Origin: Chthoniobacterales bacterium | GTDB taxonomy: Bacteria; Verrucomicrobiota; Verrucomicrobiia; Chthoniobacterales; JAFAMB01 | Direction: 5' to 3' | DNA: 36,231 bases | Assembly (NCBI GenBank): GCA_036491515.1 | Contig: DASXBV010000064.1 | Coordinates: 1 to 36,231, forward strand | Shown here: piece by piece, positions 1,042 to 33,055 of the stretch | Layout: each line of letters begins with the position of its first letter | Position numbering within the stretch: position 1 is the first letter of the stretch | The notes under the pieces: generated by a model | What the model saw: only the letters and a program-made list of their open reading frames with translations | The model's database searches: none | What the model was told of the DNA's origin: nothing | Program-made: the position numbers and the translations under genes

Positions 1042-1871
1042 AAGGCGCATTTCCAATCCGCCGGATCGTCACCTACTGCGGGCTCTCAATCTTTTATGTG
1101 TTCCTGCTGCTGCCGATCGCGTGGCTCGTTCTCTCAAGCTTCCGCAACAGTGATTCGGTTCAATCGGGACGTTTGATCCCCGCGTGGTCGGAACTCACAT
1201 TCCAAAATTACATCCAAACCTTTCAGATCAGCAACTTTGTCACCTACCTGGTGAATTCCTTCGTTATCGCATTCAGTGTCATGGTGCTGACCGTTTTCCT
1301 GGGCAGCCTCGGGGCCTACGCCTTGAGCCGTTTTGCCCTGAAGGGCAAAAAGCTCTTTATGATGGCCGCTCTTCTGCCGCAATTCTTTCCTTACGTCCTG
1401 GTCCTGATCCCGTTTTATGTTCTCATGTCGAACTTGAACCTGGTAGACACTCATATCGGCCTGATCCTGACGCACACTTCGCTCACGCTCCCATTTGCCC
1501 TTTGGATGTTGACCGGCTACTTCAACGCTATTCCGAAGGAACTTGATCAAGCAGCGCTGATCGACGGATGCTCGCGCTTCGGTGTGCTGTTTCGCATCCT
1601 TTACCCGGTCGCGGTTCCGGGCTTGGTGGTCGCCGGGTTCTTTGCTTTTGTGGTTTCGTGGGGCGATTATCTGTTCGTTTCGATATTGTCGCAGAGCAAC
1701 CAGACCCAGACGCTGCCGATTGGTTTGCAAACGTTTATGAGCAGTCTGGAGGTCCAATGGGGATTGATCACCGCAGGAACAGTCCTGGCCATTGTACCCA
1801 CGGTGATTTTCTTTTCGATCGTGCAACGCCGATTGGTTTCCGGGCTCACCGCGGGTGCTGTTAAGAGTTAG
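1038..1871 (+). CDS. Carbohydrate ABC transporter permease (MalG/UgpE-like)
   Basis: 277-aa ORF with the EAA loop QAALIDGCSRFGVLFRILYP and the C-terminal VSGLTAGAVKS tail typical of MalG-type permeases. It has a 4-nt overlap with the upstream permease. Confidence 0.88.
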   Translation: MKGAFPIRRIVTYCGLSIFYVFLLLPIAWLVLSSFRNSDSVQSGRLIPAWSELTFQNYIQTFQISNFVTYLVNSFVIAFSVMVLTVFLGSLGAYALSRFALKGKKLFMMAALLPQFFPYVLVLIPFYVLMSNLNLVDTHIGLILTHTSLTLPFALWMLTGYFNAIPKELDQAALIDGCSRFGVLFRILYPVAVPGLVVAGFFAFVVSWGDYLFVSILSQSNQTQTLPIGLQTFMSSLEVQWGLITAGTVLAIVPTVIFFSIVQRRLVSGLTAGAVKS

Positions 1872-1888
1872 ATTACTTTTATTTACTT

Positions 1889-1963
1889 GGAGGGGCGCTG
1901 CTTGCAGCGCCTGAGGCGTCTGAGACGCCTCTTGCCTCTGGGAGCCGCAAGCGACTCCCCTCC
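1889..1963. other. 75-nt multi-stem (cloverleaf-like) structured element between the permease and GH4 genes; not a tRNA
   Basis: Outer stem ggagggg (1889-1895) pairs with cccctcc (1957-1963). It encloses three hairpins: gcgctgc/gcagcgc (1895-1910), gaggcgtc-tga-gacgcctc (1913-1931) and ttgc/gcaa (1932-1950). Confidence 0.5.
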
Positions 1964-2055
1964 ATTGCAAAGGGACAGAAAATCTAGAGAAGGGCGGATT
2001 GATTTGAAGCGGAGTTCTCCGATGCTATCTGGCTCGTATCTAAATCAAAATAGCT

Positions 2056-3378: not shown

Positions 3379-3379
3379 A

Positions 3380-3505
3380 GCAGGAGTCCAGGGGGAAAGT
3401 AAGAAGTAAAAAGGCAAAAGGCAAAAATAAAACGCGCGGCGCCGCTTTCACTTTTGCCTTTTTACTTTTGCCTTTTTACTTCTTACTTTCCCCCTGCAAC
3501 TCCTG
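3380..3505. terminator. Long hairpin filling the convergent GH4/argB spacer (likely bidirectional terminator)
   Basis: Perfect 25-bp pairing of 3391-3415 (gggggaaagtaagaagtaaaaaggc) with 3470-3494. Outer 7-bp pairing of caggagt (3381-3387) with actcctg (3499-3505). Tip palindrome gcggcgccgc at 3435-3444. The right arm carries a perfect 14-nt tandem duplication, cttttgccttttta, at 3451-3464 and 3465-3478. Confidence 0.7.
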
Positions 3506-3511
3506 TCTTCC

Positions 3512-4387
3512 TTACGGTACAATCTCCGTACCGATGCCGCGCGCGGTAAAGACTTCGATAAGCAGCGCGTGCGGAATGCGGCCGTCGATCAGGTGCACTT
3601 TCCCGACACCTTCATTGAGCGCATCGACAGCCGAAAGAACCTTGGGAATCATTCCTCCCTCGATAATTTCGTCATCAATCAATTCGGCGACGTTTTCTCG
3701 ATTAACGGTAGGAATCAGCGAGTTCACATCTTTTACGTCTCGCATGACGCCCAAAACGTCACTCACATAGATCATCTTCGCAGCTTTCAATGCACCGGCC
3801 ATCGCACCCGCCGCCACATCTGCATTGACATTGAGGATTGTCCCATCTTCAGCTTGAGCAATCGGAGAAATCACCGGCACGACTTCCCGATCAATCGCCT
3901 CGCTCACACCCGAGAGCTCCAGAGAAGTAACTTCGCCCACAAATCCAATATCGACCAGATTCTTTCCGTCGATCTGTGGTGGAAGACGTTTGGCTTTGAA
4001 AACGTCGCGGCCGGAAAATCCTTCCGCGCGTCCACTAAATTCGTGCATCGCGCCGACAATCCGGGGGCGGATCACCGTATCCAGGACCTCTTCCACAATC
4101 TTGATGGTCAACTGATCGGTGACCCGGAGTCCGTTGACGAAGCGCGGGGTCTTTCCGGCCTCGCGCATACGTTGGGTAATTGCCTTGCCGCCGCCATGGA
4201 CCAGTACTGGATTAATACCGACTGCTTCAAGGAAGACGACATCACGCAGCAGACGCTCAATCAAGTGATCGTCCTCCATCGCGCTGCCACCATATTTGAT
4301 GACAAACGTCTGGCCGCGGAATTTTTGGATAAAGGGAAGCGCTTCCAAAAGGGCCTCCGCCTTCCCGACCTCGGATTGGTTCTGCAT
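3512..4387 (-). CDS. argB: Acetylglutamate kinase
   Basis: 291 aa with FVIKYGGSAM and PVLVHGGG motifs of the AAK family. Lies downstream of argJ and argC. Confidence 0.93.
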   Translation of the reverse strand: MQNQSEVGKAEALLEALPFIQKFRGQTFVIKYGGSAMEDDHLIERLLRDVVFLEAVGINPVLVHGGGKAITQRMREAGKTPRFVNGLRVTDQLTIKIVEEVLDTVIRPRIVGAMHEFSGRAEGFSGRDVFKAKRLPPQIDGKNLVDIGFVGEVTSLELSGVSEAIDREVVPVISPIAQAEDGTILNVNADVAAGAMAGALKAAKMIYVSDVLGVMRDVKDVNSLIPTVNRENVAELIDDEIIEGGMIPKVLSAVDALNEGVGKVHLIDGRIPHALLIEVFTARGIGTEIVP

Positions 4388-10024: not shown

Positions 10025-11512
10025 TTGATGGCAAAAGGTTCTCAAGGTTTGATGAAACCTGCTGAGAACCCCTTAAGCACCGAGGGGACAGCCACCGGGA
10101 AGCGAAGATCGAGTTATTCACAGGATTCTCACAGCCCATCCACAGGCAGAGAGGTTCCTCGATCCCTGCCATTTAGCGAGGACGGCGAAAAAGGTGTACT
10201 TTGTTCCCTCCTGCTGTCTCCCCGAGAGGTTGCCGACATTTGTGTTTTGCGCCTTCGTCCGGATGCATTTTACATACCGGCACATCAGATTATCTACGAT
10301 CTGATCCTCGAATTTGGTGATAAGAGTAAGCCGATCGATTTCGTCTCGCTGAAGCAGGCTCTCAAAGATCGAAATCAACTTGATGAGATCGGCGGACCCG
10401 AAGGTCTCAGCGCGCTTTTCAGCTTTGTTCCGACCGCGGCAAACGCCAGCTACTACGTTGATATCGTCCGCGAGAAGTTTGTCTTGCGCAGGTTGATTCT
10501 CGCTTGCAACAAACTTTCCACTCAGTGCTACGACCAGCAGGGCGAAATCGAGCCGTTGTTGGACGACGCGGAGAAGGAGATTTTTGCAATCACCGGAGAA
10601 CACGTCAAAACGGAGATTGTACCCACCAAAGATCTTGTAATGGAGGCAATCGAACAGATCGAAAAGTTGTATGAGAATCGGGGTTCGGTTACCGGTCTGC
10701 CGACTGGATTTATTGAGTTAGACCGGATGACCAGCGGGCTTCACGCAGCCGAGATGATCGTCATCGCAGCTCGACCGAGCATGGGAAAGACCGCGTTGGC
10801 AATGAACATTGCGGAGCACATTTCAATAGACGTCGGCAAACCTGTTGCAGTGTTCAGCCTCGAAATGAGCAGCCAGCAGCTGGTCCAAAGACTTCTCTGC
10901 TCCCGAGCTAAAGTTGATCTACAGCATGTCAGGAATGGATTTCTCTCAGAGCGAGACTTCCCGAGTCTCACAGCCGCAGCCTCCCAGCTCGCAGCCGCTA
11001 AAATGTATATCGACGACACGCCGGGTCTCACGGTCACAGAACTGCGTGCCAAGTCTCGGCGCATGAAATCGCAGTACGGTATCGAGCTTATGGTAATTGA
11101 TTACCTGCAGCTGCTTCGCTCGACGAGTCGAAGGGCACAGGATAACCGGCAATTAGAAATCTCGGAGATCTCCGGAGGAATCAAAGCCCTCGCCAAGGAA
11201 CTGAATCTGCCAATCATCGTCATTGCTCAATTGAACCGCCAACCGGACACGCGCGCCAAAGAGGGCGGTCGTCCTCGTTTGAGTGATTTGCGTGAGTCCG
11301 GCTCGATCGAACAAGATGCCGACCTCGTAGGACTGCTCGTCAGAGCAGAATACTACGAGAACTACGACACCGATGAGGAGACAAAACAGGAAAGAGCTGG
11401 CGAAGCAGAGCTGATCATAGCGAAGCAGCGGAATGGTCCCACTGGCGACGTTCTGTTGACATTCCTGAAAAAATACACGCGATTTGAATCTCGCGCCCGC
11501 GAGCACGCATAG
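10025..11512 (+). CDS. dnaB: Replicative DNA helicase DnaB
   Basis: 495 aa with Walker A ARPSMGKTALAMN, VIDYLQLL and IIAKQRNGPTG. An N-terminal extension of about 45 aa, rich in S/T, precedes the conserved DnaB N-domain. The rplI-dnaB adjacency is common. Confidence 0.93.
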   Translation: MMAKGSQGLMKPAENPLSTEGTATGKRRSSYSQDSHSPSTGREVPRSLPFSEDGEKGVLCSLLLSPREVADICVLRLRPDAFYIPAHQIIYDLILEFGDKSKPIDFVSLKQALKDRNQLDEIGGPEGLSALFSFVPTAANASYYVDIVREKFVLRRLILACNKLSTQCYDQQGEIEPLLDDAEKEIFAITGEHVKTEIVPTKDLVMEAIEQIEKLYENRGSVTGLPTGFIELDRMTSGLHAAEMIVIAARPSMGKTALAMNIAEHISIDVGKPVAVFSLEMSSQQLVQRLLCSRAKVDLQHVRNGFLSERDFPSLTAAASQLAAAKMYIDDTPGLTVTELRAKSRRMKSQYGIELMVIDYLQLLRSTSRRAQDNRQLEISEISGGIKALAKELNLPIIVIAQLNRQPDTRAKEGGRPRLSDLRESGSIEQDADLVGLLVRAEYYENYDTDEETKQERAGEAELIIAKQRNGPTGDVLLTFLKKYTRFESRAREHA

Positions 11513-12753: not shown

Positions 12754-13088
12754 CACTGTTCGAAAAAATTGCGGCCCGCGAGATTCCTGCAAAGATAATC
12801 GAGGAAGACGAGGACCTAATCGTTTTCCACGATATAAAGCCACAAGCGCCGGTTCATGTTCTTGTTGTCCCGAAAAGACCCATACCGCGTCTCGCCAACG
12901 CGACAGCACAGGACGAAAAGCTGTTAGGTAAGCTCCTGTTGAAGGCTCAGGAAATGGCCAAATCGCTTGGAATTGCGGAATCTGGATTTCGAGTCGTTAT
13001 CAATAGCGGGCGCAACGGCGGAGAATCGGTACCCCATTTGCACGTTCATCTGCTCGGAGGACGTCCGTTAGCTTGGCCGCCCGGCTAA
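12750..13088 (+). CDS. Histidine triad (HIT) nucleotide-binding protein, HinT-like
   Basis: 112 aa with the HLHVHLLGG histidine triad and the typical N-terminus LFEKIAAREIPAKII. Confidence 0.9.
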   Translation: MTLFEKIAAREIPAKIIEEDEDLIVFHDIKPQAPVHVLVVPKRPIPRLANATAQDEKLLGKLLLKAQEMAKSLGIAESGFRVVINSGRNGGESVPHLHVHLLGGRPLAWPPG

Positions 13089-13116
13089 CCCGCAAAAATC
13101 ACGCGAAAGCTGAAAG

Positions 13117-13155
13117 CAGCGAAATTTTCCGGCGTAGCCCGGCAAATTTCGCTGC
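13117..13155. terminator. Hairpin downstream of the HIT gene
   Basis: gcagcgaaattt (13117-13128) pairs with aaatttcgctgc (13144-13155), leaving a 15-nt loop. Confidence 0.5.
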
Positions 13156-13158
13156 CTG

Positions 13159-13206
13159 AGCCTGCATCGCTCACAAATCTCTAAGGATTTGTGAGCGATG
13201 CAGGCT
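13159..13206. repeat. REP-like hairpin, family 2 (copy 1): 21-bp stem, 6-nt loop
   Basis: agcctgcatcgctcacaaatc (13159-13179), loop tctaag, then gatttgtgagcgatgcaggct (13186-13206). The pairing is perfect. A second copy lies at 36050-36097. Confidence 0.8.
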
Positions 13207-13432
13207 AAGGGCTTTGCCCCGCCAATGTCGTTTAGGCGAAGCTCCCATTCCCCTTGAAACAAGGGCGGATAACCGCTGACGTGAACGCTGACTTCCAATC
13301 AAGGCCTGTCATTATCACACGCGCAGCCTGGCCTCCTGGGATTGGTAATATCGGGTCTGGGGCATTGGCCTTAAATCCCGAACACCGCAGGGCAAATTCT
13401 AAAATCTTTTCCAGCTTCCAAAGAACAAAAAC

Positions 13433-15784
13433 CTACTCGCGCAACGTCACACCAAGACGTTCCACGAGCTGCGACTTCAATCGGCCATGTGCCACGTTCG
13501 CTTCTTCCTGTGTCAAAGTCCGGTCGCTTGCTCTATATGTCAAACTGCAGGCCATCGATTTCTTCTGGGCGGGCACCTTTTCTCCGCTCGGATCCACGAA
13601 GAGATCGAACAAGCGAACGTCGGCGAGCAGCGGCTCGTTGGCCGAAGCAAAAGCATCAACCACGGCCTGGTATTTCAATTCTCGATCGGCCAGAAATGCA
13701 ACATCTCGCACCACCGCTGGAAACCGGTCCAGCGGCTTGTATCTGAACCCTTTGGGAGTCTCACCTATCCGCAAATTCAGTTCAGCGACGAAGACGGGGC
13801 CTCGCGCACCGATCTCTTTGGACAACCCGGGCCGCACCTGACCGACCTTACCCACCATGCTTCCGGCCTCATCGATTACATTGCAAACGAGCGGAGCGAA
13901 ACTCGTCGGCTGCACCCTTGCTAAAGCAAACTCCTTGCGAAACGCAGCCTTCAGCATACCCTTCAAGTCGAACAGATCGAACGGTTCAGCATCCTGGTTC
14001 CAGCTTTTGCCTTGCCGCTCTCCAGACAGAAGAATCGAAAGGCACATGTATTCCTCCGGCGCAAGGGCCCGAAAAATGCGGCCTATTTCGAATATTGCCA
14101 CGCTACTCAATCCACGATTAAAGTTTCGCTCGGCTGCTCTGACGAGGCCCGGTATCAATGACGGCCTCAAAATCTGCTGATCTTCGACCAGCGGATTTCG
14201 CAGTTTCGAAGGGTCTGGTCGCGCCTCGACGAGCAAATCGAGACTGTGCTCGTCCACTAAGGTCAAGGTTCGCGCTTCGAAAAGCCCTAGACCCACCAGC
14301 CGTTGGCGAAGCTGCATGAGTTCGTCGTGGGCACGATCGGCAGCCGAGCTTCGGGTTGCCGAACCGTAAATACGCGACGGCACTCTTTGTATTCCGGCCA
14401 TCCGGCATACCTCTTCAATCAGATCTATCTCTCGGACCAAGTCTTGCCGGAAGCTTGGTATCTCCCAGCGATTCCCCCCTGCATGTTTGAGCTCCAGTCG
14501 GGTCAGCAGTTTGGCTGAATCAGGGACCTCCATGCCCAAGACCATGTTACAACGTTCCGGACGCATCTCGACCACACCGGTCAAATTCGGTACGGAACCG
14601 CCGATGACGATGCTTTCGTCCACCTTTCCGCCGGCAACTTGCAGAAACAGATCGATTGCGCGGGCAGAAGCGAGCAATACCGCTTCCGGATCCACGCCAC
14701 GCTCGAACCGAAAACTGGAATCCGAAATCAACCCAAGACGGCGACTGGTCCGGCGAATGAAACCCGGATTGAAGTAGGCTGCCTCCAGAAGCAAATCGGT
14801 AGTGGTCGCGGCAACACCGCTTCGCTCGCCACCCATCACGCCGGCGATAGCCAGCACCCTCTCGTGATCAGCTATCACGATATCATCAGGCTCAAGCTCA
14901 TAGTCTTTTCCATCCAACGCTAACAGCTCCTCGCCGGACTTGGCCGATCGAACAACGATGCCTCCTCTGATTTTTGCGGCATCGAACACATGAAGCGGCT
15001 GACCGAGCTCTAAAAGTACGTAGTTCGTCACGTCCACCACATTGTTGATCGAGCGCAACCCCAAAGCCTCCAACCTTTGCCGGAGCCATCCTGGACTTGG
15101 TTCTACCCGAGCACCACGGAGCAAGCGCGCGGAATAAAAGGGGCAGCCCTGTGGAGCCTCGATACGAACGACGTCAGAATCTTCACGAGCGGATTCGGGC
15201 CTTGCTACAACTTGCGGCAATTTTGGCCTGGGCAGATCAAGCAGCGCGGCCAGCTCCCGCGCGATTCCGACATGGCTCAGTAAGTCAGGCCGATTCGGCG
15301 TGACTTCCACTTCGAAGATGGTATCTGGGGGAAAAAGCTCGGACAGCGGACTTCCGAGGACCGCATCGGCGGGTAAGATCAGCAAGCCGGCGGCGTCATC
15401 CGCAAGATTAAGCTCCTTCGGACTGCAAAGCATCCCCTCGGATTCGACGCCTCGCAGCTTGCTTACTTTGATTTTCACTCCGTCCGACAGAACGGCGCCC
15501 GGCAAAGCCAGCGCCACCTTATCTCCAGTCCGAAAGTTTTTCGCGCCACAGACGATTTGTCGCGACAGACTGGAACCGTCATTCACGCGGCAGACGCTCA
15601 GCCGATCCGCATTGGGATGCGGCTCGAAGGACTCAATTTGCGCCACAATTACTTTATCGAGGTCCGCGCCACGTTGTTCAACACCCTCGACCTCAACTCC
15701 GGCAAATGTCAGCGCCTCGACAATCTCCGCTACCGAATGCTGAACGAACAAAAATCCCTTCAACCAATTCAGGGACAATTTCAT
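13433..15784 (-). CDS. pheT: Phenylalanine--tRNA ligase beta subunit
   Basis: 783 aa with N-terminal MKLSLNWLK and a tRNA-binding domain. B3/4 and B5 regions are recognisable. The start overlaps the pheS stop (ATGA at 15781-15784). Confidence 0.94.
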   Translation of the reverse strand: MKLSLNWLKGFLFVQHSVAEIVEALTFAGVEVEGVEQRGADLDKVIVAQIESFEPHPNADRLSVCRVNDGSSLSRQIVCGAKNFRTGDKVALALPGAVLSDGVKIKVSKLRGVESEGMLCSPKELNLADDAAGLLILPADAVLGSPLSELFPPDTIFEVEVTPNRPDLLSHVGIARELAALLDLPRPKLPQVVARPESAREDSDVVRIEAPQGCPFYSARLLRGARVEPSPGWLRQRLEALGLRSINNVVDVTNYVLLELGQPLHVFDAAKIRGGIVVRSAKSGEELLALDGKDYELEPDDIVIADHERVLAIAGVMGGERSGVAATTTDLLLEAAYFNPGFIRRTSRRLGLISDSSFRFERGVDPEAVLLASARAIDLFLQVAGGKVDESIVIGGSVPNLTGVVEMRPERCNMVLGMEVPDSAKLLTRLELKHAGGNRWEIPSFRQDLVREIDLIEEVCRMAGIQRVPSRIYGSATRSSAADRAHDELMQLRQRLVGLGLFEARTLTLVDEHSLDLLVEARPDPSKLRNPLVEDQQILRPSLIPGLVRAAERNFNRGLSSVAIFEIGRIFRALAPEEYMCLSILLSGERQGKSWNQDAEPFDLFDLKGMLKAAFRKEFALARVQPTSFAPLVCNVIDEAGSMVGKVGQVRPGLSKEIGARGPVFVAELNLRIGETPKGFRYKPLDRFPAVVRDVAFLADRELKYQAVVDAFASANEPLLADVRLFDLFVDPSGEKVPAQKKSMACSLTYRASDRTLTQEEANVAHGRLKSQLVERLGVTLRE

Positions 15785-16797
15785 GTCGCAAACTGGGCTA
15801 AGAATCGTTGGTCATTCTCGATCAACAGGCGGATATCAGGTAAACCGAACAAGGACATCGCCAGGCGTTCGAGCCCCATTCCAAACGCGAATCCGGTCCA
15901 ATTCTCGGGATCATAAGCGCTGTCGCTCCGTCTTAAGTTGACCGCTTCGAACACGGCGGGATTGACCATTCCACACCCCAAGAGTTCCATCCATTTGCCC
16001 TCCTGGATCCCGGGCAATCGGATATCGAGTTCAAAGCTTGGCTCCGTAAAAGGAAAAAAATGGGGTCGCAGGCGAGTTTCCACCTCTTGCCCTAACAGCT
16101 CTCGAACGAAATATTCCAAAGTTCCTTTGAGGTCAGCGACGCTGACGTTGCGATCGACGTATAACCCCTCCAGCTGATTGAACTGGTTCAGGTGCGTTGC
16201 ATCGGTTTCGTCTCGGCGGTAAGCCGCTCCGGGTCCGATCACCCGGACGGGAGGTTCATTCGCAACCATCGTCCGGATCTGAACGGTCGAGGTATGCGTA
16301 CGTAGCAGTCTTCCGTCGGGCAGGTAAAATGTGTCCGAATCGTTGCGGGCCGGATGATTCGCCGGAGTGTTCAACGCGTCGAAACAGTGCCATTCAGTTT
16401 CAATATCAGGCCCGTCGGCCAACGCAAATCCCAGCCGTCGCAGAATTTGCACCGCTCTTTCCTGAAGGAGCGTCAGCGGATGCATGCCTCCGACACGAAA
16501 CGGCGTTCCTGGAAGGGTCTCGTCCACATCGCTCAAATTCTTTGCCTCTCCTTCGGACTCCAGGGCAACGAGCCGGCCGTCCAAGGCAACCGCTACCGCG
16601 TTTCGGACCTCATTTAAGAGCTTGCCGATTCGGGGACGATCCTCTTTCGGCACGTTGCGCATGTTTTCACTCAACTGAGAAATTGCGCCGGCTTTTCCCA
16701 GAAATTTCACCCGAAGATTTTCAAGGGCGATTTTGCTGTGCGCCTGTTGAATTTCGCCAAGCGCCGTTTCCTGCAATCTTTGAAGATCCTTGTCCAT
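15781..16797 (-). CDS. pheS: Phenylalanine--tRNA ligase alpha subunit
   Basis: 338 aa with class II core motifs, including RPHFFPFTEPSFE and GFAFGMGLERLAM. Confidence 0.94.
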   Translation of the reverse strand: MDKDLQRLQETALGEIQQAHSKIALENLRVKFLGKAGAISQLSENMRNVPKEDRPRIGKLLNEVRNAVAVALDGRLVALESEGEAKNLSDVDETLPGTPFRVGGMHPLTLLQERAVQILRRLGFALADGPDIETEWHCFDALNTPANHPARNDSDTFYLPDGRLLRTHTSTVQIRTMVANEPPVRVIGPGAAYRRDETDATHLNQFNQLEGLYVDRNVSVADLKGTLEYFVRELLGQEVETRLRPHFFPFTEPSFELDIRLPGIQEGKWMELLGCGMVNPAVFEAVNLRRSDSAYDPENWTGFAFGMGLERLAMSLFGLPDIRLLIENDQRFLAQFAT

Positions 16798-16815
16798 CGC
16801 AAGAAAGGGCCTGCA

Positions 16816-17187
16816 CTAGGCTGCGTTCTTTCGGTCCAAGGCCGCACCGGCTCTGTCCAAGACAGCTTTGAACGCCGTTTCGTCAGTTGCTGCCAGGTCG
16901 GCCAATACCTTGCGATCAATTTCAATTTTGCCTGCAGCCAGGCCTTCCATAAAACGGCTGTAGGACATGCCAAATTGGCGACAAGCCGCATTGATTCGTT
17001 GAATCCAGAGGTTGCGAAAATTGCGTTTCCGCGTTTTCCGATCACGGTACGCCCAATATTGGGCCTTCATCGTGGCATCTTTAGCATAACGAAAAAGCTT
17101 GGATCGGCGCCCCCGATATCCCTTGGCTTTGTCGAGAACTCTTTTACGGCGCTCTCTGCTGGCGCGCGCATTAGTTGCTCTAGGCAT
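16816..17187 (-). CDS. rplT: 50S ribosomal protein L20
   Basis: 123 aa starting MPRATNARASRERRKRVLDKAKGYRGRRS, the canonical L20 N-terminus. Confidence 0.95.
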   Translation of the reverse strand: MPRATNARASRERRKRVLDKAKGYRGRRSKLFRYAKDATMKAQYWAYRDRKTRKRNFRNLWIQRINAACRQFGMSYSRFMEGLAAGKIEIDRKVLADLAATDETAFKAVLDRAGAALDRKNAA

Positions 17188-17312
17188 GTATCTTATCCGG
17201 CATCCGCCGGATCCTCACGTACAGGTTGTTGTTCACATTTCGTTCTCCCTACCTCACCTGTCACCTCAGCCCCGAAGCATTCCGAGGCAGGCGGAGAACG
17301 GTCTGCGCTTTC

Positions 17313-17522
17313 TTAGTTGAATGGCAGGTTTTCTTTAATCCGCGCCTCGTCAGTTTTGTCGAGAACGCCGGTCTTAGCGAGTTGACGCTTGCGCTTCGCA
17401 TTTTTCGACACCAGAAAGTGTCTATGGCCAGCGTGGCCGCGAAGCACCTTGCCGGTCGCCGTCACCTTGAAGCGTTTCGCCACCGCTTTCTTTGTTTTGC
17501 GTCTCGCTATCGGTTTTGGCAT
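17313..17522 (-). CDS. rpmI: 50S ribosomal protein L35
   Basis: The ATG at 17522 gives MPKPIARRKTKKAVAKRFKVTATGKV (69 aa), which is canonical L35. The track ORF start (17603) would overlap the regulator gene. Confidence 0.9.
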   Translation of the reverse strand: MPKPIARRKTKKAVAKRFKVTATGKVLRGHAGHRHFLVSKNAKRKRQLAKTGVLDKTDEARIKENLPFN

Positions 17523-26276: not shown

Positions 26277-26441
26277 CTAACCTTTGACCGCCCCCGCCGT
26301 GGCTCCGGAGATCATGTACTTTTGGATAAACAGGAACAGAATGAGCGTCGGCACCATCGCCAGGGTCGCTGCAGCCATCAGACTTCCCCAATCGGTCGAA
26401 TATTGCTGCATGAACGATTGGATGCCGACAGGCATCGTCAT
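26277..26441 (-). pseudogene. Remnant: last 54 codons of a MalG-type carbohydrate ABC permease
   Basis: The minus-strand translation is MTMPVGIQSFMQQYSTDWGSLMAAATLAMVPTLILFLFIQKYMISGATAGAVKG*. This parallels the C-terminus of the intact permease at 1038-1871 (LPIGLQTFMSS...VSGLTAGAVKS). An in-frame TGA lies immediately upstream, so about 80 percent of the gene is missing. Confidence 0.8.
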
Positions 26442-26689
26442 TCAATCTTCGTCCCGCAGAAAAACGCTCGCAGTTCGACGATAGCGCGATGTCCGGGACG
26501 CTCAAAGCATAAAGCGGATCGACGGAAGTTACCGTTTGCCTTCCAGAGGACGTCATTTCGGCGTTGAAACTCGCGGGGTCCATCACCGCATCTAAGGATT
26601 CGCTTTTGCAGGTCCTCTTCAGAAAGAGCGAACATCGCCTGATATTCAGTCAACGATCGGCCCCAAGGAACGACATTCTCCAGTTTCAT
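26442..26689 (-). pseudogene. Remnant: frameshifted and 3'-truncated class I SAM-dependent methyltransferase
   Basis: MKLENVVPWGRSLTEYQAMFALSEEDLQKRILRCGDGP continues as ASFNAEMTSSGRQTVTSVDPLYALS only after a 1-nt shift in the C-run (GGGG on the plus strand, 26575-26578). The PWGR...MFAL...GCGDGPASFNAE pattern is recalled from a conserved methyltransferase family. Homology is lost by about 26480. Confidence 0.7.
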
Positions 26690-26771
26690 GCACGAGTGCT
26701 CATCAGCCTGAAACCCGGGAAGTCCTCGCCCACCAGGGCCTTTCTATGCTACACATCTTGTACCCGCAATC

Positions 26772-27440
26772 ATGGAGAGTCCCCGAGAAAAACTGCTGAA
26801 GAGATTCGCCCGCAACCCTCGCTTAACCCCTTCACAAATCAGTGGAACGGCCGCCGTCCAATTTGCTCTGAATGAGTTACTCGCCGAGGGCGCCATCCGA
26901 AAATTGGACGCGTTCTACCTGGCCGAACATGAACCCACCATTTATACCGAAAAGGCACGGATAGCGAAACTACTGGAAGCGAAACCGAAACTCTTTCGCG
27001 CTTCGTTTTTGCTGCCAAAAATCCGCGCTCTAAAGCCTCTGGCGCGCACAGCACTTGCCGAGCTGGTCGATGAGCGCATCGTCCTGGAACTGCCGATGCA
27101 CGGCAAGGGGTCTACACTGCTTTATATACATCGCAGCCATCTGGCCCGCGCCGAGCCGGCAAATGAGGCAATAGGAAAAGGACCGCTCGAGGAACGAATC
27201 CTCGCGGCATACCGTGACGGCTCAACTGCGCGCCAAAGGCGATCGATCCCCATTTCCGAATTGATCCAACGTTCCGGCCTTTCTGCCGGTGAAGTCCGCT
27301 CCTGGATCGTAGAGACCGGCATACCATCCCGCAAAGTGCAACTGGACCAGGGCGATTGGGCATCCGCCAGTGAAGATGAGCGTGCTGCGGCGATTGAACA
27401 GGGCGGCCGGAAACGACTCTACATCGCGATTGAGCCATGA
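26772..27440 (+). CDS. Cassette gene A: small protein with two to three winged-helix-like modules (hypothetical)
   Basis: 222 aa. wHTH-like segments include LTPSQISGTAAVQFALNELLAEGAIRKL, ARTALAELVDERIVLEL and IPISELIQRSGLSAGEVRSWIVETGIPSRKV. The stop overlaps the gene B start (ATGA at 27437-27440). Confidence 0.6.
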   Translation: MESPREKLLKRFARNPRLTPSQISGTAAVQFALNELLAEGAIRKLDAFYLAEHEPTIYTEKARIAKLLEAKPKLFRASFLLPKIRALKPLARTALAELVDERIVLELPMHGKGSTLLYIHRSHLARAEPANEAIGKGPLEERILAAYRDGSTARQRRSIPISELIQRSGLSAGEVRSWIVETGIPSRKVQLDQGDWASASEDERAAAIEQGGRKRLYIAIEP

Positions 27441-29470
27441 AGTTCGAACTAGCCGGGTTGTCGATCAACCCATTCGACAAAGATGTCGTTCACAAACCGC
27501 GCGAATGCCCAAGCTCGGTCGCTACACTCAACGAAGACATCCTTTCCCGGCTTATCGCCGCATTCGGTTTGGTAGATGCGAACCGGACTCTGGTCGGAAA
27601 CAAGGCGGAACTCATCCTATCTATCGCCCCCGGCTACGGAAAGAGCCATCTCGTCGGACGCTTGTTTAAAGCGCTGGATCGCAAGGCAACCCAGATTTTT
27701 CTCACACCGTTCCAGACAGTGTCATTGTGCTGGCAGTCTATTCTCCTTCACCTCGTTAATGAACTCGACTATCCCGACTCCAGTGACGAAACCAAGTGGG
27801 CTTTTGACGAACCAAGGCAGCTCGATGCGCTCGCAGAAGGAGTTCTGAGAAACCTCGTCGCCAACGCTATTGATGAGGGACTTGTCAAGATTGTGCAAGG
27901 GGGGTTGCAATCAGAACAATTGCGCCAAGCCTCAGAGATTTCGATCGGCAAGGGCTCGGATCCCAGGAGCACCTGGCTCCGTGACCATTTCATTGACGAA
28001 CTTTTGCCGCTCTGCCAACAGCAACTTTTTCCGTTACGATTGACCTCGACCGGGTGGTTGAAAGTGCTGTTCCATTATCTCACCTCTTCGCCAGGGTCCG
28101 ATATCCGGCAAGGTTGTCTGGCTTGGCTCAGGTATGAAACCCTCGATGACTCGGTGCTTCAATCCCTCGGGATGGGACCGGGCGAAAACCCGAGAAGCGA
28201 GCCGGTGGACGTCGTGAATAACGCTTGCTGGCTGCGTATCCATGATTTCTGCAAGCTGGCGCGCTATTTCCGTCCCTTTCTTTTTTGTTTTGACCAGACT
28301 GAAGACTACAAGACGAATCTGGAGCTGCTACAGCAATTCGGGCGAGTCGTCGTTCGCTTGGTGAACGAAGTGCCAAACCACCTTACCGTCGTGACTGCAA
28401 ACCAGGTGATTTGGGATGAGAAAATTCTCCCAAATATCGATGACGCGCATCGCGATCGTTTTTCGGTCTCAAAACAGCTCCGCGGTCTGGACCGTCGGGA
28501 AGCCGAGGAACTGATCAGATTACGGCTAGCCCCTTTCGCTCCTGCCGAAGAACTCCTTGACCGATTTGCAGACCAGAGATGGCTCGATGCCCTGTTCTCC
28601 GAACGCAAGACGCTGCCCGCCCGTGAGTTTATGCAGCAATGCAGAGACCGTTGGGCAGGCGCAAAAACTGCAACTCCAATCCCTCCGCTAGATCACATTT
28701 TTGAGGAATACCTGTCCGAGTTTCGCGTTAATTTACGCTGGCGACATTTTGATCCCGATGTGTTCCGATGGCTCGTAAAGGGTCCGCTCGCTACGGATCC
28801 GGCGATCGTCTGCTCGGAAAACAAAAAAGAAACCCCTTTCGCCGAACTCCAATGGAGCGTGGCCGGGCGGGCGGAGATTCTGTTCGGATTTGTTCGCGAG
28901 TTGCATTTTACCCAATGGAGAAAAATCGCCGACGTTGCAGACGCGTGGCGCGCGAAACATTCCGGCAAGGTTGCTAAGATCATCTATTTTCGGTCCGAAG
29001 AACTGGATCCGGTTCCAAAACCCTCATGGACGAAGACCGGACCGGCGATCCGCGCGTCGCTCGGATCCGGGCTGGTCGTGCTGACTAAAGAAGAAAGCGC
29101 AGAATTGAATGCCGCGCGAGATCTCTATCTCGAAGCGGTTTCTGGAAATGTGTCCGGGTATTCCGGAGAGGATGTCCTCCGGTTTCTACAAAAACGACTG
29201 GCGCCCTGGCGCGAACGAATTTTGCAAATTCCGTCGTCATCGCATCTCCACCAGCCGGAAAATCGTGCTACAGGCAAGCCTCCAACCAAATTGTTATTGG
29301 AAAAGTTACGAATCCTTGTGCAACAAGAGAAATTCCTGAGCCTCACCGATGCTCTCGAAAAGCTCGGCGCAGGATGCAGCGAGGACCTTGTACTCGAGGC
29401 GTGCGAAAAAATACCGCAAATCCAAAAGATCGCTCATCCGAATATGGTCGTGCTCATATGGCAAGGATAA
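27437..29470 (+). CDS. Cassette gene B: large P-loop NTPase (AAA+/ORC-like or BrxC-like) with widely separated Walker A and B motifs
   Basis: 677 aa. Walker A is SIAPGYGKSHL (nt 27626-27646, K69). The candidate Walker B is FLFCFDQTED (D286, nt 28292), followed by a sensor-like HLTVVTANQ. The C-terminal segment LLEKLRILVQQEKFLSLTDALEKLG looks like a wHTH. Confidence 0.65.
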   Translation: MKFELAGLSINPFDKDVVHKPRECPSSVATLNEDILSRLIAAFGLVDANRTLVGNKAELILSIAPGYGKSHLVGRLFKALDRKATQIFLTPFQTVSLCWQSILLHLVNELDYPDSSDETKWAFDEPRQLDALAEGVLRNLVANAIDEGLVKIVQGGLQSEQLRQASEISIGKGSDPRSTWLRDHFIDELLPLCQQQLFPLRLTSTGWLKVLFHYLTSSPGSDIRQGCLAWLRYETLDDSVLQSLGMGPGENPRSEPVDVVNNACWLRIHDFCKLARYFRPFLFCFDQTEDYKTNLELLQQFGRVVVRLVNEVPNHLTVVTANQVIWDEKILPNIDDAHRDRFSVSKQLRGLDRREAEELIRLRLAPFAPAEELLDRFADQRWLDALFSERKTLPAREFMQQCRDRWAGAKTATPIPPLDHIFEEYLSEFRVNLRWRHFDPDVFRWLVKGPLATDPAIVCSENKKETPFAELQWSVAGRAEILFGFVRELHFTQWRKIADVADAWRAKHSGKVAKIIYFRSEELDPVPKPSWTKTGPAIRASLGSGLVVLTKEESAELNAARDLYLEAVSGNVSGYSGEDVLRFLQKRLAPWRERILQIPSSSHLHQPENRATGKPPTKLLLEKLRILVQQEKFLSLTDALEKLGAGCSEDLVLEACEKIPQIQKIAHPNMVVLIWQG

Positions 29471-31293
29471 CTGTCACGCAACTGAAACACGCCTCTCTCA
29501 ACAAGGAATGGCGTGACGCCTGGATTCGCGACCTATCCACCCCTACGCCAATCGCTCGCGCACCCAAAAAAAGTGTGCCCGTAAACAGCACGTTATTTCA
29601 TCGCCTGGTCGAACAATTCTCGGACTGGCTTACCGCGGAACCGAACCTCAAGATGGCAGCGAAATTATCCCGCTATGATAATCTCTGGGACGCGTTCTGG
29701 AATACGTTTGCGAAGAAAGAACTGCTCGCGCTTTTGCAGCAGCAGGGACCTGAATCCGCGGATCGCTTGACGAAATCCCTGAAAAACTGGTGCCAACAGT
29801 TACTGACGAAACGCGATGCTGCCGCTTCCTTCAAGAATTGGCGAAGTCTTATCCTGACCTCTGAATACCAGTTCGACGATATTCCCGTCTCAACCGCTCG
29901 GGGTATTGTCCATGTTGCCGGACGCCCTGACTGCGTTATTCTGGAAAACAGCGGCCCTGTTGTCGTTGACTACAAGCTCTCGCGCGGCGCAAACCTCAAA
30001 ACGGATCTCCTTCAAGCCGTCATCTACGCCGCGCTCTTGCAGCGCGCCCGCCCAAGTCTGCTCATTTCCGCGCGGCTCGAATACTACGAGCCGCATCTGC
30101 ACGTCATCGCCCAAAATCCCGACCAAATCAAAAGGCTATTCGACGAACTGGTCGCGCCAGTACTCGAGGCACTCGCTGCGCATTTCTCCGAAAATCCTCC
30201 CGAACCGGCCGGGGCAATTCAATCTCATACACAACAACTGCCGTGCCCTAACTTCGGAACTGAGATCGTTACTGCTTACCACGCCTATGGTGTAACCGTT
30301 CAAGTGGTGGATCGATTGGAAGCTCCTCAGCTTGTGCGTTACCGGCTGCAAATGGGCGAGGGAGTGAAGTTTAACCAAATCGAGCAACACTCGACCAATC
30401 TGAGAATTGCATTGGCGTTGCCCTCTGAACCGATGATCTCAGCCGGCCCGGGCTTTGTCTTCTTTGACGTCGCGAAACCGCAGCCAGACACAGTCCAATG
30501 GTCAGAGATCACCAATTTTCCCGCGTTTCGGCAGCATCCTAGCGTCACCGCTTTTCCGGTGGGTATAGGCGTCGATAACCAACCGATTATTGCTGACCTC
30601 TCCGACCCAAATATGGCTCACGCGCTCGTGGCTGGCACAAGTGGAAGCGGAAAGAGCGAGTTTTTGAAAACCGTCGTTGCCACGCTTGCTGCCCGAAATT
30701 CACCGGCCCAGCTGAAATTTTCTCTGATTGATCCCAAGCGCCTCACGCTGGGAATGATCCGCGACAACCACTACCTCGCGGGCCCTGTGATTTTCTCGCT
30801 CAAACAAGCTTTGATCTGCCTCGCCGATGCAGCCGAAGAAATGGATCGGCGTTACGACGCCCTACTTCAGGAAGGGTTCACCAAACTGAGTGATCGATTT
30901 GTATCTGGTAAGAAAGACATCCCGTTCCGTGTCCTCGTTTTTGACGAGTTTGCGGATCTAGTGCATTCCGGCAAGGAAGGAAAAAAGGAGTTCGAACGTC
31001 TCGTGGTGCGCATTGCCGGTAAGGGCCGAGCGGCGGGCATCCATCTTGTTGTCGCGACTCAACGTCCTGATCGCGAGACCGTGAGCGGCTTGTTGAAAGC
31101 CAATCTTCCCCTGAAGGTTTGCTTCAGAGTTACCAACTCAGTGAATTCAGCCATTGTCCTCGATCAACCTGGCGCCGAAAGACTCCTTGGGCGCGGCGAC
31201 TTCCTTTGCGACCGAGGCAAAGGCCTTGAACGCGGCCAGGCTTCACTCATCTCCCAGGACCAATTCCTGCAAGCCTTAACGCGCCGTTCGTGA
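29458..31293 (+). CDS. Cassette gene C: RecB/Cas4-like PD-(D/E)xK nuclease fused to a soluble FtsK/SpoIIIE-family ATPase
   Basis: 611 aa counted from the ATG at 29458, which overlaps the end of gene B by 13 nt. Nuclease motifs: GRPD (nt 29920-29931), VVDYK (DYK at 29968-29976) and QAVIY. FtsK core: VQVVDRLEAPQLVRYRLQMGEGVKFNQIEQHSTNLRIALAL, Walker A GTSGSGKS (30634-30657), Walker B VLVFDEFAD (DE at 30943-30948) and HLVVATQRP. No TM segments and no gamma domain. Confidence 0.8.
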   Translation: MARITVTQLKHASLNKEWRDAWIRDLSTPTPIARAPKKSVPVNSTLFHRLVEQFSDWLTAEPNLKMAAKLSRYDNLWDAFWNTFAKKELLALLQQQGPESADRLTKSLKNWCQQLLTKRDAAASFKNWRSLILTSEYQFDDIPVSTARGIVHVAGRPDCVILENSGPVVVDYKLSRGANLKTDLLQAVIYAALLQRARPSLLISARLEYYEPHLHVIAQNPDQIKRLFDELVAPVLEALAAHFSENPPEPAGAIQSHTQQLPCPNFGTEIVTAYHAYGVTVQVVDRLEAPQLVRYRLQMGEGVKFNQIEQHSTNLRIALALPSEPMISAGPGFVFFDVAKPQPDTVQWSEITNFPAFRQHPSVTAFPVGIGVDNQPIIADLSDPNMAHALVAGTSGSGKSEFLKTVVATLAARNSPAQLKFSLIDPKRLTLGMIRDNHYLAGPVIFSLKQALICLADAAEEMDRRYDALLQEGFTKLSDRFVSGKKDIPFRVLVFDEFADLVHSGKEGKKEFERLVVRIAGKGRAAGIHLVVATQRPDRETVSGLLKANLPLKVCFRVTNSVNSAIVLDQPGAERLLGRGDFLCDRGKGLERGQASLISQDQFLQALTRRS

Positions 31294-31345
31294 ACCGGTG
31301 GAATTGCGTGAGCCCCTACCGGCTACCGGGGCGAGGCTTAGGCGG

Positions 31346-31846
31346 CTAGGCTATTTTCATCGACATCTGCGAACCGTGACATAGCGTCTGGTAAACGACG
31401 CAATAGCGCTCAGTCAATTCAAGCAACCGCGCTCGCTCGTCCGGCGTTGCATCGGAGTCGAGCTCAATGCGAAGCCTGATCTGTTTGAAGCCGACCTGGG
31501 CATCCTTCCCGACGCCCAAAGTACCCCGAAAATCGAGGTCGCCCTCGGCGGTGACGCGACCACCTCGAAGCTTCACGCCAAGCGCAGTCGCAACAGCGGT
31601 CAACGTCACCCCTGCACATGCGACGAGAGCTTGCAAAAGCATGTCTCCCGAGCACGCTTCCACCCCGGTCCCTCCTGTCGCCGGGTGAAGACCCGCCTCA
31701 ACAATAGCTTGTCCAGCCGGAACGCTGCACGCAACGCGGTCGTTCAGGGTACCCTCCGCCCGCAAAGTGATCAGGGCGGATTGTGGATCCTCCCGATAGC
31801 GTTGCTTCAGTGGAGCCTGAAGGGCTCGAAGTTCATCTCGATTCAT
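31346..31846 (-). CDS. OsmC/Ohr family peroxiredoxin-like protein
   Basis: 166 aa with the OsmC-like pattern, including the two Cys contexts EACSGDMLLQALVACAG and TERYCVVYQTL. Confidence 0.8.
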   Translation of the reverse strand: MNRDELRALQAPLKQRYREDPQSALITLRAEGTLNDRVACSVPAGQAIVEAGLHPATGGTGVEACSGDMLLQALVACAGVTLTAVATALGVKLRGGRVTAEGDLDFRGTLGVGKDAQVGFKQIRLRIELDSDATPDERARLLELTERYCVVYQTLCHGSQMSMKIA

Positions 31847-31888: not shown

Positions 31889-32335
31889 TCAACCGCAGGA
31901 AAGTTTGAGCGCTTGATAAACCGGGTTGCTTCCCAGCTCTGGATGCTTGGCAAGCAACTCCGCGTCCAGCCGCCGAGCCAAGTTCCTTACTTGTTCCCTG
32001 AATACCGGGAACGGTACAATGACTTCTCCCGGTGCGTAACTCCCGGAGATTACCACCTCCAGGCCTTGGCGTTCAAAATTAAGGGTCGCCTCCGACTCGG
32101 TAAACTCAAAGGTTTCGTTTCCCTCTGCTACGGCCAAAGCCTCCGCAATCTCTCGCAAAGCCAATGCAAAATCGATCAAAGGAATCCAACCCCAAATTGC
32201 GCTCAGGTCTGTCTGGTCTGCTCGGAGAATGATGTCCCCGGGCGCAACATAGTAGCGGAGATCCGCCTCTGCCACAGTCGACAAATCCATGGTATCCTCG
32301 TCCCATTCTTCGGAAAGCCGGTAGTCGAGGTGCAT
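31889..32335 (-). CDS. Strongly acidic hypothetical protein (candidate immunity partner)
   Basis: 148 aa, D/E-rich (SEEWDEDTMDLSTVAEADL, ETFEFTESEATLNFE), with no signal peptide. It begins 34 nt downstream of the secreted toxin-like ORF on the same strand. Confidence 0.55.
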   Translation of the reverse strand: MHLDYRLSEEWDEDTMDLSTVAEADLRYYVAPGDIILRADQTDLSAIWGWIPLIDFALALREIAEALAVAEGNETFEFTESEATLNFERQGLEVVISGSYAPGEVIVPFPVFREQVRNLARRLDAELLAKHPELGSNPVYQALKLSCG

Positions 32336-32369: not shown

Positions 32370-32783
32370 TCAAAACGGAAATGCGGTGATGAGTTGATTG
32401 CGAGGGCTCACCACGATCCGGAGCCTGCTGGCCGGTTCGCCATTGATCTTTACACCGATCGGCCGACTGAAATCGTACTCGTAGATTTCGCCAGGTCGCC
32501 CGTTCGTGTTCGGCCGGGCGCGCCCGTTTGCAACGGCTTCATTAATGAGTTCCCTAAGTGAGTCCTCCGTAATCCCTTGGGAGAACTTTCCCGCACCCTG
32601 GGCCGGACTATTCGGCCAATGCCTTTCCTCGATGTGCCGAAGCGCCCGCCCGGTGATGACAACTTGCCGTGCCGCTTCATTTACGAAGCCCATCCCGTCC
32701 TGTGCTTCAACAATACGATCGCCGAAGACAACCATGACCACTCCAACCCACACACATAAGATCGGAATCCCGGCGCGTTTCAT
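32370..32783 (-). CDS. Small secreted or membrane-anchored protein with an HxxxRH motif (candidate toxin/nuclease-like)
   Basis: 137 aa counted from the ATG at 32783. MKRAGIPILCVWVGVVMVVFG is signal- or anchor-like. The roughly 110-aa domain carries ALRHIEERHW. The alternative ATG at 32810 lies inside the inverted repeat. Confidence 0.55.
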   Translation of the reverse strand: MKRAGIPILCVWVGVVMVVFGDRIVEAQDGMGFVNEAARQVVITGRALRHIEERHWPNSPAQGAGKFSQGITEDSLRELINEAVANGRARPNTNGRPGEIYEYDFSRPIGVKINGEPASRLRIVVSPRNQLITAFPF

Positions 32784-32787
32784 GCTG

Positions 32788-33055
32788 GTGTCCTGTCCCC
32801 GAAATAACATGTATTTTGCCGGAGGTCAGTTGGCTGTTTTTCAAGGCGGTCCGAGCCGGACTGGCGGTAACGAAGCGCCCATACAACTGGCCCCGCCCAG
32901 AGGGTTGCGATGAAAATGGGCCGGCGGCTGTCCGGCGGCCGCCTGGCGGCCGCCGGATCGGTCACGTATCGATTCAGATATGCTCCGCTCCTCGCGCCTT
33001 GCCGGCGGCCCATTTTGATCGCAACAAAACACATGCTATTTCGGGGACAGGACAC
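32788..33055. repeat. Nested inverted-repeat element between rpe and the toxin-like gene
   Basis: Outer IR: 32788-32812 (gtgtcctgtccccgaaataacatgt) versus 33031-33055, 24/25 complementary. Inner IR: 32904-32927 versus 33002-33025, 22/24. A perfect 12+1+12 palindrome, ccggcggccgcc-t-ggcggccgccgg, lies at 32932-32956. Confidence 0.8.

Follow-up and report, generated by a model that had tools for sequence, protein, structure and literature searches.

What does a soluble protein do that joins a RecB-family nuclease to the motor of the chromosome translocase FtsK, and does it act alone? The question is raised by gene 3 of a three-gene cassette at coordinates 26772-31293 in a Chthoniobacterales bacterium (assembly GCA_036491515.1, contig DASXBV010000064.1, positions 1 to 36,231 of the forward strand; this whole stretch of 36,231 nucleotides (nt) is referred to here as the window). 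A preliminary description of gene 3 presented it as an unusual domain fusion that would act as a processive DNA shredder. The cassette very probably belongs to the Orc/CDC6-coupled HerA/FtsK capture systems, a class described computationally in 2024 and predicted to act against invading phages, plasmids or conjugative elements (PMC10853773, section 22). The architecture is thus already known from comparative genomics, and the window cassette is a further instance of the described class. Taken jointly, a capture system of this class with a role in defence and a motor-nuclease mechanism is in our judgement a probable reading of the cassette, and its parts are graded separately below.

A nuclease domain and an FtsK-clade motor in gene 3

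The six-frame listing gives an open reading frame at 29374-31293 on the forward strand with an in-frame ATG at 29458. All 24 homologs (43-82% identity) begin with M-A-x-x-I-T/S-V-T/S-Q-L-K, and because their N-termini align at the equivalent of 29458 we assign the start of gene 3 to this ATG; the longer reading from 29374 was rejected on the same grounds. Three Pfam domains score above their gathering cutoffs: PDDEXK_1 at residues 45-241 (E = 6e-11, 43.1 bits against a cutoff of 22), FtsK_alpha at residues 268-323 (31.8 bits against 22.9), and FtsK_SpoIIIE at residues 361-537 (E = 3e-32). The two profile searches proposed in the preliminary description, with a PD-(D/E)xK nuclease profile and with FtsK_SpoIIIE (PF01580), therefore both match, and the nuclease and ATPase motifs lie where it had placed them. 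In an alignment of 25 homologs with 43-82% identity, E136 and the nuclease motifs GRPD (D158), VDYK (position 171 is D or E) and QAVIY, together with the ATPase motifs, vary little or not at all.

The AlphaFold2 (AF2) model of gene 3, with a mean predicted local distance difference test score (pLDDT) of 87, extends the nuclease domain by two further strands and a long helix to approximately residue 245. Because the domain runs on this far, the linker to the motor, earlier put at about 70 residues, shrinks to about 15 disordered residues (248-261). A PD-(D/E)xK fold is assigned to residues 1-245 from three observations, the Pfam profile, the conservation of the motifs and the secondary structure of the model; the nuclease domain alone finds no match in the PDB by phmmer at E values up to 10, and the Cas4 profiles of PADLOC and NCBIfam match it weakly. 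The only cysteines in the domain are C112 and C159, so that a four-cysteine Fe-S cluster is absent, as had been stated. At the equivalent of the first Cas4 Fe-S cysteine-helix most homologs have L-K-C-A-C-L-D and the window protein has L-K-H-A-S-L-N (29458-29530); matching C-terminal cysteines, or a CxxC, are present in no aligned member. The N-terminal cysteines of the homologs may be what is left of an Fe-S cluster that has since been lost.

The motor is clearly of the FtsK type. A profile of the gene 3 family matches the FtsK motor structures of P. aeruginosa and E. coli (including 2iuu) over residues 254-600 with an E value of 4e-81, and comparison of the AF2 model with the PDB by Foldseek gives FtsK motors (2iut, 2ius, 6t8o and related chains) with target-normalised template modelling (TM) scores of 0.73-0.81 (0.76 for 2iut and 0.79 for 2ius), E values of 1e-29 to 1e-32 and 28-33% identity. 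The region around VATQRP had been taken to hold the arginine finger. In the account of PMC10853773, the glutamine closing a strand of the VATQRP type is the sensor-1 residue and the arginine finger lies just upstream, and by analogy the finger is more likely to reside in the invariant KGRAAG (522-527) than in TQRP. No transmembrane segment was found in gene 3 by Kyte-Doolittle hydropathy (19-residue window, limit 1.6), the highest window reaching 1.43, and there is no Pfam match to Ftsk_gamma at E <= 1, the chain stopping about 10 residues past the motor. The gamma domain is likewise absent from the precomputed Pfam annotations of all 120 homologs considered below. The soluble character of the motor and its want of an anchor and a gamma domain thus agree with the preliminary description. 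Sequence and model together show that gene 3 carries a RecB-type nuclease whose active site is intact, joined through a short flexible linker to an FtsK-clade motor that retains its ATPase motifs.

Partner genes and distribution of the cassette

Gene 3 is the third and last gene of a tightly packed, translationally coupled operon, in which genes 1 and 2 overlap by 4 nt (ATGA) and genes 2 and 3 by 13 nt (Table 1). Gene 1 evolves quickly: a database search recovers only close relatives, with at least 59% identity, and it shares 22-33% identity with its counterparts at the head of the cassettes from Desulfonema, Kuenenia and Verrucomicrobiales, compared with 43-55% for gene 3 across phyla. The first genes of the distant cassettes share a C-terminal GDW...R..A...G..L.I motif. 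All Pfam matches of gene 1 are sub-threshold, and most of those that recur across family members are to winged-helix models (such as HTH_24, HTH_IclR, DprA_WH and WHD_MCM8); a profile of the gene 1 family yielded nothing usable against the PDB or PADLOC. These matches suggest that gene 1 probably encodes a DNA-binding protein of several winged-helix units.

Table 1. Coordinates of the cassette genes, with their domains and motifs; residue numbers in amino acids (aa) are given with the feature.
Feature	Position in window (nt)	Strand	Basis
Gene 1, 222 aa, fast-evolving, probably winged-helix units	26772..27440	+	open reading frame listing, alignment, sub-threshold Pfam
Gene 2, 677-aa AAA+ ATPase, putative Orc/Cdc6-like	27437..29470	+	AF2 model, invariant motifs
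Gene 2, ATPase core, aa 57-350			model layout
Gene 2, helical insert, aa 128-277			model layout
Gene 2, lid, aa 353-407			model layout
Gene 2, alpha/beta domain, aa 418-600, candidate inactive restriction endonuclease	28688..29236	+	model topology
Gene 2, C-terminal winged helix, aa 618-675 (H-S-H-H-S-S)			model layout
Gene 3, nuclease and FtsK alpha/beta fusion, 611 aa	29458..31293	+	13-nt overlap with gene 2
Gene 3, RecB-family PD-(D/E)xK nuclease domain, aa 1-245	29458..30192	+	Pfam PDDEXK_1, motifs, model
Gene 3, nuclease motifs E136, D158, D171-x-K173, Q186-x3-Y190	29863-30027	+	alignment
Gene 3, disordered linker, aa 248-261	30199..30240	+	pLDDT <50, gappy variable alignment
Gene 3, FtsK alpha (~aa 263-345) and beta RecA-like motor (~aa 346-600)	30244..31257	+	Pfam, PDB profile, Foldseek
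Gene 3, Walker A GTSGSGKS, aa 393-400	30634-30657	+	
Gene 3, Walker B VFDEFAD, aa 494-500 (D496-E497)	30937-30957	+	
Gene 3, ATQRPD, aa 533-538; coordinates for TQRPD (T534-D538)	31057-31071	+	

Gene 2 encodes an AAA+ ATPase whose AF2 model has a pLDDT of 88 and a predicted TM-score (pTM) of 0.90. Residues GYGKS 66-70, D286/E289, R341 and R396 are invariant in the family and N322 is nearly so. The Pfam families AAA_16 and AAA_22 match weakly, and below threshold throughout, in 25-26 of 29 family members, and a profile of the family gives only noise against the PDB. Foldseek matches are weak (E ~2e-3) and all to AAA+ proteins; they include human ORC4/ORC5, which reach the highest probability (5uj7_C/D; probability 1.0, E = 3e-3), as well as HslU, FtsH, BrxC and complexes containing Cdc6/Orc1. 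In the modelled alpha/beta domain the elements H440-448, E457-461, E471-475, E479-484, H491-507 and E512-519 follow one another in the order alpha-beta-beta-beta-alpha-beta, a topology like that of a restriction endonuclease (REase). Its conserved residues are aromatic, plus one arginine (W445, W473, W494, F483/F485 and R519), and none of the D...(D/E)xK catalytic residues is conserved in the family alignment, making this domain a candidate inactive REase.

The claim that the gene 3 fusion is unusual does not stand. Among the best 120 database clusters of gene 3 relatives, which reach down to 42% identity, almost all combine PDDEXK_1, FtsK_alpha and FtsK_SpoIIIE in a protein of ~600 aa, in Chthoniobacterales, other Verrucomicrobiota, Desulfobacterales, Kuenenia and Gammaproteobacteria. 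A search with the nuclease domain through 1.84 billion representative proteins, clustered at 50% identity, found it in 96 clusters, of which 57 have E <= 1e-10. The proteins are mostly ~600-730 aa long with the domain at the N-terminus, and some are 1,190-1,380 aa long with the domain in the centre. The usual database names of the gene 3 relatives are "DNA translocase FtsK" and "cell division protein FtsK". Because the family is soluble, fused to a nuclease and without a gamma domain, these names are misleading, and in Verrucomicrobiota, Desulfobacterota, anammox bacteria and Proteobacteria many entries so named do not represent proteins of cell division.

The partner genes travel with gene 3. 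A trio with products of ~240-295, ~670-690 and ~600-620 aa is present in Desulfonema limicola, in a Kuenenia and a gammaproteobacterial metagenome-assembled genome, and on two metagenomic contigs, and the flanks of the cassette are unrelated between these loci. In a census of one genome from each of 185,579 species, with the gene 2 AAA+ family as marker, the marker was found in 171 genomes from at least seven phyla (Verrucomicrobiota, Desulfobacterota, Nitrospirota, anammox Planctomycetota, Alpha- and Gammaproteobacteria, Acidobacteriota and Myxococcota). Locus types were counted in the 56 informative loci, those with enough downstream sequence. The AAA+ gene is followed in tandem by nuclease and FtsK in 36 of these, and by a nuclease without FtsK in four, one of which (L025, 5216-7909) has the gene 3-type nuclease fused to a HerA motor instead; two have AAA+-FtsK fusions lacking the nuclease, and in 14 the AAA+ gene has neither nuclease nor motor downstream. 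All 36 nuclease-FtsK genes of the census, and every one examined on other contigs, lie directly downstream of an AAA+ gene.

Relatives with other domain combinations were identified by Pfam scan. One chain of 1226 aa (P0331) unites AAA_16, PDDEXK_1, FtsK_alpha and FtsK; two proteins (P0354 and P0382) join a PDDEXK_1-type nuclease of the gene 3 kind to a HerA-type motor; and one (P0391) joins the gene 3-type nuclease to a RuvB-like AAA+ with the RuvB C-terminal winged helix. Another protein, of 1016 aa (P0182), has an AAA+/REase-like region fused straight to FtsK alpha-beta, without the nuclease. The ring motor thus appears to be interchangeable across relatives, and since the nuclease is also fused to HerA or to a RuvB-like AAA+, the constant theme is a ring motor, a nuclease and an AAA+ partner. 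The single-chain fusions of AAA+ with FtsK, and of AAA+ with nuclease and FtsK, show that the partners act together, the manner not being revealed by the fusions. AAA+-FtsK fusions lie at 7001-10051 of L003 (on the same contig as L012) and at 910-4527 of L015, and are found in some Verrucomicrobiota; the P0182-type variant lacks both the PD-(D/E)xK nuclease and the C-terminal winged helix-turn-helix (wHTH) of the AAA+ protein. A 279-aa gene that follows the L003 fusion was considered as the missing nuclease and rejected, as it has no similarity to it and no Pfam match.

In 11 of the 14 loci without nuclease and motor (L009, L010, L026, L029, L031, L032, L035, L039, L046, L057, L059, L060, L065 and L081) the AAA+ protein is shorter and matches the window protein only to about residue 516-642; it is of full length in L009, L029 and L032. 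A wHTH-like gene was detected before the AAA+ gene in eight of the 14, and the next genes with Pfam matches in those that were scanned are housekeeping genes (ribBA, dapA, YceI). These loci may represent cassettes in decay, or else a separate system of two genes.

Flanking genes differ between distantly related genomes, and only a close relative, L007, shares one with the window: an upstream GFO/IDH/MocA oxidoreductase (2039-3379 in L007, 25123-26586 in the window) is 88% identical between the two, and the cassettes are ~80% identical. None of the downstream genes of the window is matched within ~4 kb past the L007 cassette. One insertion boundary may be conserved within Chthoniobacterales-like genomes. 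Searched by tblastn, 72,556 plasmids and 50,697 phage records contained nothing that matched gene 2 or the nuclease domain. The distribution being sporadic over phyla and the flanks variable, an accessory cassette that spreads horizontally fits these data.

The remainder of the window is core chromosome (thrS, dnaB, pheST, argJ/argC, degP, gatCA, an oxidoreductase, OsmC, rpe, tadA and queA), without mobile-element genes, defence genes or a GC anomaly, and a promoter and terminator scan of 26400-31500 gave counts at background. Two open reading frames on the opposite strand, between OsmC and rpe and outside the cassette (31889-32335, 148 aa, and 32370-32810, 146 aa), have no Pfam match at E <= 0.001. 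Near the cassette no defence-type gene was seen in the window, L001, L084 or L086, where the neighbours are mostly housekeeping or unannotated. Among the inspected loci, defence-like neighbours are present only in L002, with a 969-aa AEP-TOTE/DEAD/PLD protein and an MNT/HepT pair (885-3794 and 10117-10650), and in L085, with HicAB, DUF2779 and an HD protein (12987-17496).

Class membership and proposed mechanism

The published class comprises an Orc/CDC6 ATPase, an inactive REase inserted before the C-terminal wHTH of that ATPase, an active REase and a HerA/FtsK motor; one subset has a motor with an FtsK alpha domain "captured" from cellular FtsK, a subset adds a fast-evolving multi-wHTH protein, and the domains are spread over one or several polypeptides (PMC10853773). 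The class is restated in section 36 of PMC12839542. The cassette was likened to the class through the published description, homolog accessions not being found in the short supplement of the paper. Gene 3 provides a motor bearing FtsK alpha, by Pfam, PDB profile and Foldseek, and a domain of REase fold with a predicted intact active site, according to PDDEXK_1 and its invariant motifs. The AAA+ protein in the same operon is clear from its fold, Walker A and B motifs, sensor and arginines, whereas its placement in the Orc/Cdc6 clade is weakly reproduced. The model puts an REase-like topology (residues 440-519) before the winged helix, at the position published. In its fast evolution gene 1 resembles the small protein of the class, its putative wHTH repeats being suggested by sub-threshold matches, and the occurrence in 171 of 185,579 genomes, in fused, split and HerA-swapped forms, agrees with the sporadic, mobile and domain-shuffled neighbourhoods of the class.

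For the described systems it has been proposed that the Orc/Cdc6 and HTH parts localise the complex, and that HerA/FtsK intercepts DNA and pumps it towards the nuclease (PMC10853773, section 26; PMC12839542, section 36). Applied to the window, the small wHTH protein and the AAA+ protein would recognise something characteristic of foreign DNA, or of the intermediates that form when it replicates or is transferred, with the AAA+ winged helix and the dead-nuclease-like domain as putative DNA-binding surfaces. The products of genes 1 and 2 would then recruit or license the FtsK-type ring, presumably a hexamer by analogy with FtsK, which would pump dsDNA by ATP hydrolysis to six tethered nuclease domains for cutting. 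Since the motor is without a gamma domain it lacks guidance by chromosome polarity, and since it is unguided the choice of target would have to come from the partner proteins. In relatives, the fusions of AAA+, nuclease and FtsK (P0331) and of AAA+ and FtsK (P0182) in one chain link the partners physically. No modification gene is present in the cassette. We lean slightly towards a defence role for the cassette, and put forward this specific order of recruiting, pumping and cutting as a tentative scheme that falls somewhat short of probable. A stronger version, in which the AAA+ protein is a true ring loader, as Orc/Cdc6 is for MCM, recognises together with the fast-evolving wHTH protein a structure peculiar to foreign DNA that is entering or replicating, and uses ATP to place the soluble FtsK-nuclease hexamer around that DNA, is in our view unlikely.

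Several points count against reading the cassette as a defence system of this class. The literature search found no experimental study of the Orc/CDC6-coupled capture class or of the gene 3 family, and no PADLOC model spans the cassette. We infer that the gene 3 protein forms a hexamer, pumps DNA and cuts it, and the same holds for any step of loading. The Orc/Cdc6 assignment is weak: the Foldseek E value is ~3e-3, and HslU and further AAA+ proteins score similarly. No signal was obtained by hhalign between the gene 2 alpha/beta domain and the active nuclease of gene 3, nor any significant similarity of the three presumed wHTH units to each other or to the C-terminal wHTH of gene 2; the inactive-REase and wHTH assignments therefore depend on model topology or sub-threshold matches. 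The association with defence islands is weak, the flanks being housekeeping genes in the window and in most related loci examined, and the 14 loci with an AAA+ gene that lacks a downstream nuclease and motor are not explained by the model.

Whether gene 3 could do without its partners is the first matter to be weighed. Motor and intact nuclease site are both in gene 3, so that on its own it could form a hexamer destroying any DNA that it engages, and the few genomes with a nuclease and no adjacent FtsK, or a motor and no nuclease, point to modularity. However, gene 3 overlaps gene 2 by 13 nt, each of the 36 census nuclease-FtsK genes directly follows an AAA+ gene, single-chain fusions with AAA+ exist, and a soluble FtsK-nuclease free of regulation would presumably harm the cell, all of which makes an autonomous shredder very unlikely. 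The coupling of nuclease to motor was thus a reasonable proposal in the preliminary description, and the self-sufficiency of the gene was not, the conserved operon partners having been overlooked; since two conserved upstream genes overlap and sometimes fuse with gene 3, a targeted or regulated machine is indicated rather than an autonomous shredder. A different outcome of regulation would be abortive infection, the complex lying inactive until infection and then degrading all DNA, including the host chromosome, so that the cell is killed or arrested. The cassette has no modification enzyme or evident self-marking gene, its motor is without sequence guidance for want of a gamma domain, and DUF4297-HerA, activated by assembly, is reported to defend by abortive infection (PMC11291478). 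We nevertheless regard this as unlikely, because two putative DNA-binding partners, one of them fast-evolving, resemble specificity determinants more than a simple switch.

Two further alternatives lie outside defence. Motor-coupled RecB-family nucleases resect DNA ends in AddAB and RecBCD, in archaea this task falls to HerA-NurA (PMC12977600), and the window surroundings are core chromosome, including dnaB and free of mobile-element genes. All this would suit a complex that resects ends or processes forks, comparable to HerA-NurA or AddAB, in which the AAA+ and wHTH proteins would sense damage or structure. But a marker in only 171 of 185,579 species genomes, scattered over phyla with non-syntenic flanks, forms an accessory pattern, gene 1 evolves very fast, and no other repair genes co-occur; a role in DNA repair or recombination is consequently quite improbable. 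Orc/Cdc6-like proteins are replication initiators, and the cassette might serve a mobile element in transfer, segregation or replication initiation, in the manner of Streptomyces TraB or of plasmid FtsK-like translocases with an Orc-like initiator. A weak NCBIfam TraB match to the motor and a Foldseek match to the TcpA coupling protein could be cited for this, as could the derivation of related HerA/FtsK genes from mobile elements (PMC10853773). Yet integrase, relaxase, replication and conjugation genes are absent from the window and the inspected loci, the plasmid and phage records contain no tblastn match, the motor matches cellular FtsK (E = 4e-81) much better than it does TraB or TcpA, and a conserved, active-looking nuclease is hard to square with faithful DNA transfer. 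We consider a mobile-element function very improbable.

Returning to the capture system with a role in defence, if that prediction is true the cassette would be a modification-independent defence system in which a segregation motor without its anchor and polarity reader feeds DNA to a tethered RecB-type nuclease, and in which an initiator-like AAA+ protein controls a re-tooled FtsK motor. With only three proteins, it would be a convenient model in which to ask how a translocating ring is directed to foreign DNA. Should ring loading prove true, the specificity of immunity would be set at loading and not by DNA modification, a new logic of self and non-self. A demonstration that the AAA+ partner acts as a loader would be notable.

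Comparison with known systems

The preliminary description had allowed that the architecture might belong to a common, already characterised family such as a conjugation or segregation protein. The architecture is indeed recurrent across phyla and already described, but it is not that of a conjugation or segregation protein, and the literature search found no experimental characterisation of it. Gene 3 keeps the alpha and beta motor of cellular FtsK/SpoIIIE, with Walker A and B, the sensor glutamine and GRAAG, at 28-33% identity, but it is without the membrane helices, the long linker and the gamma (KOPS/XerD) domain, carries a nuclease at its N-terminus, and resides in an accessory operon, whereas FtsK is a universal single-copy division gene. 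Its identity as a canonical FtsK was rejected for want of the membrane anchor and the gamma domain. The nuclease domain has the motif order of Cas4, AddB and RecB nucleases, an acidic residue followed by GRxD, (D/E)xK and QxxxY, although it differs from Cas4/AddB in having neither the four-cysteine Fe-S cluster nor a CRISPR or helicase-nuclease context. Membership of the Fe-S Cas4/AddB group was rejected, the cysteines being absent and the NCBIfam Cas4 score being 24.6 against a cutoff of 65.

In DndH/SspH, too, a single chain carries a nuclease of REase fold ahead of a HerA/FtsK motor, and the gene belongs to a module of three, one of which encodes a multi-wHTH protein (PMC10853773); a like arrangement, with gene 1 as the putative multi-wHTH member, is proposed here. 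SspH is also the best PADLOC match of gene 3 (E = 2e-48), but this match is confined to the C-terminal FtsK-type motor, as is that to mad8. Compared with DndH (~1,700 aa), gene 3 lacks the helicase remnant, the target recognition domains and the inactive methylase, and its partner is an AAA+ protein as opposed to a P-loop kinase. Membership of DndH/SspH was rejected because the match covers profile positions 1413-1736 of 1766 (~320 residues, the motor), and PADLOC gives no match to DndF/SspF or DndG/SspG in genes 1 and 2 at E <= 1.

DUF4297-HerA, Sir2-HerA and archaeal HerA-NurA all pair a hexameric motor of the HerA/FtsK superfamily with a nuclease, as gene 3 is predicted to do. For DUF4297-HerA, anti-phage activity and ATP-coupled cleavage of dsDNA have been shown experimentally, nuclease and HerA activating each other on assembly (PMC11291478). 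The motor of gene 3 is of the FtsK clade, with Foldseek E values of ~1e-32 to FtsK versus 6e-8 or weaker to HerA, and a HerA-clade pair of HAS barrel and HerA ATPase was rejected on this ground, on a PADLOC HerA match of 1e-9 over ~60 residues, and on the fusion of the nuclease. The gene 3 nuclease, unlike those of the HerA pairs, is covalently joined to its motor and resembles RecB/Cas4 enzymes, not DUF4297 or NurA, and two extra partner genes accompany it. If the defence prediction is true, the theme of motor and nuclease, which has experimental support in DUF4297-HerA and DndFGH, would be widened from the HerA family to the FtsK clade proper.

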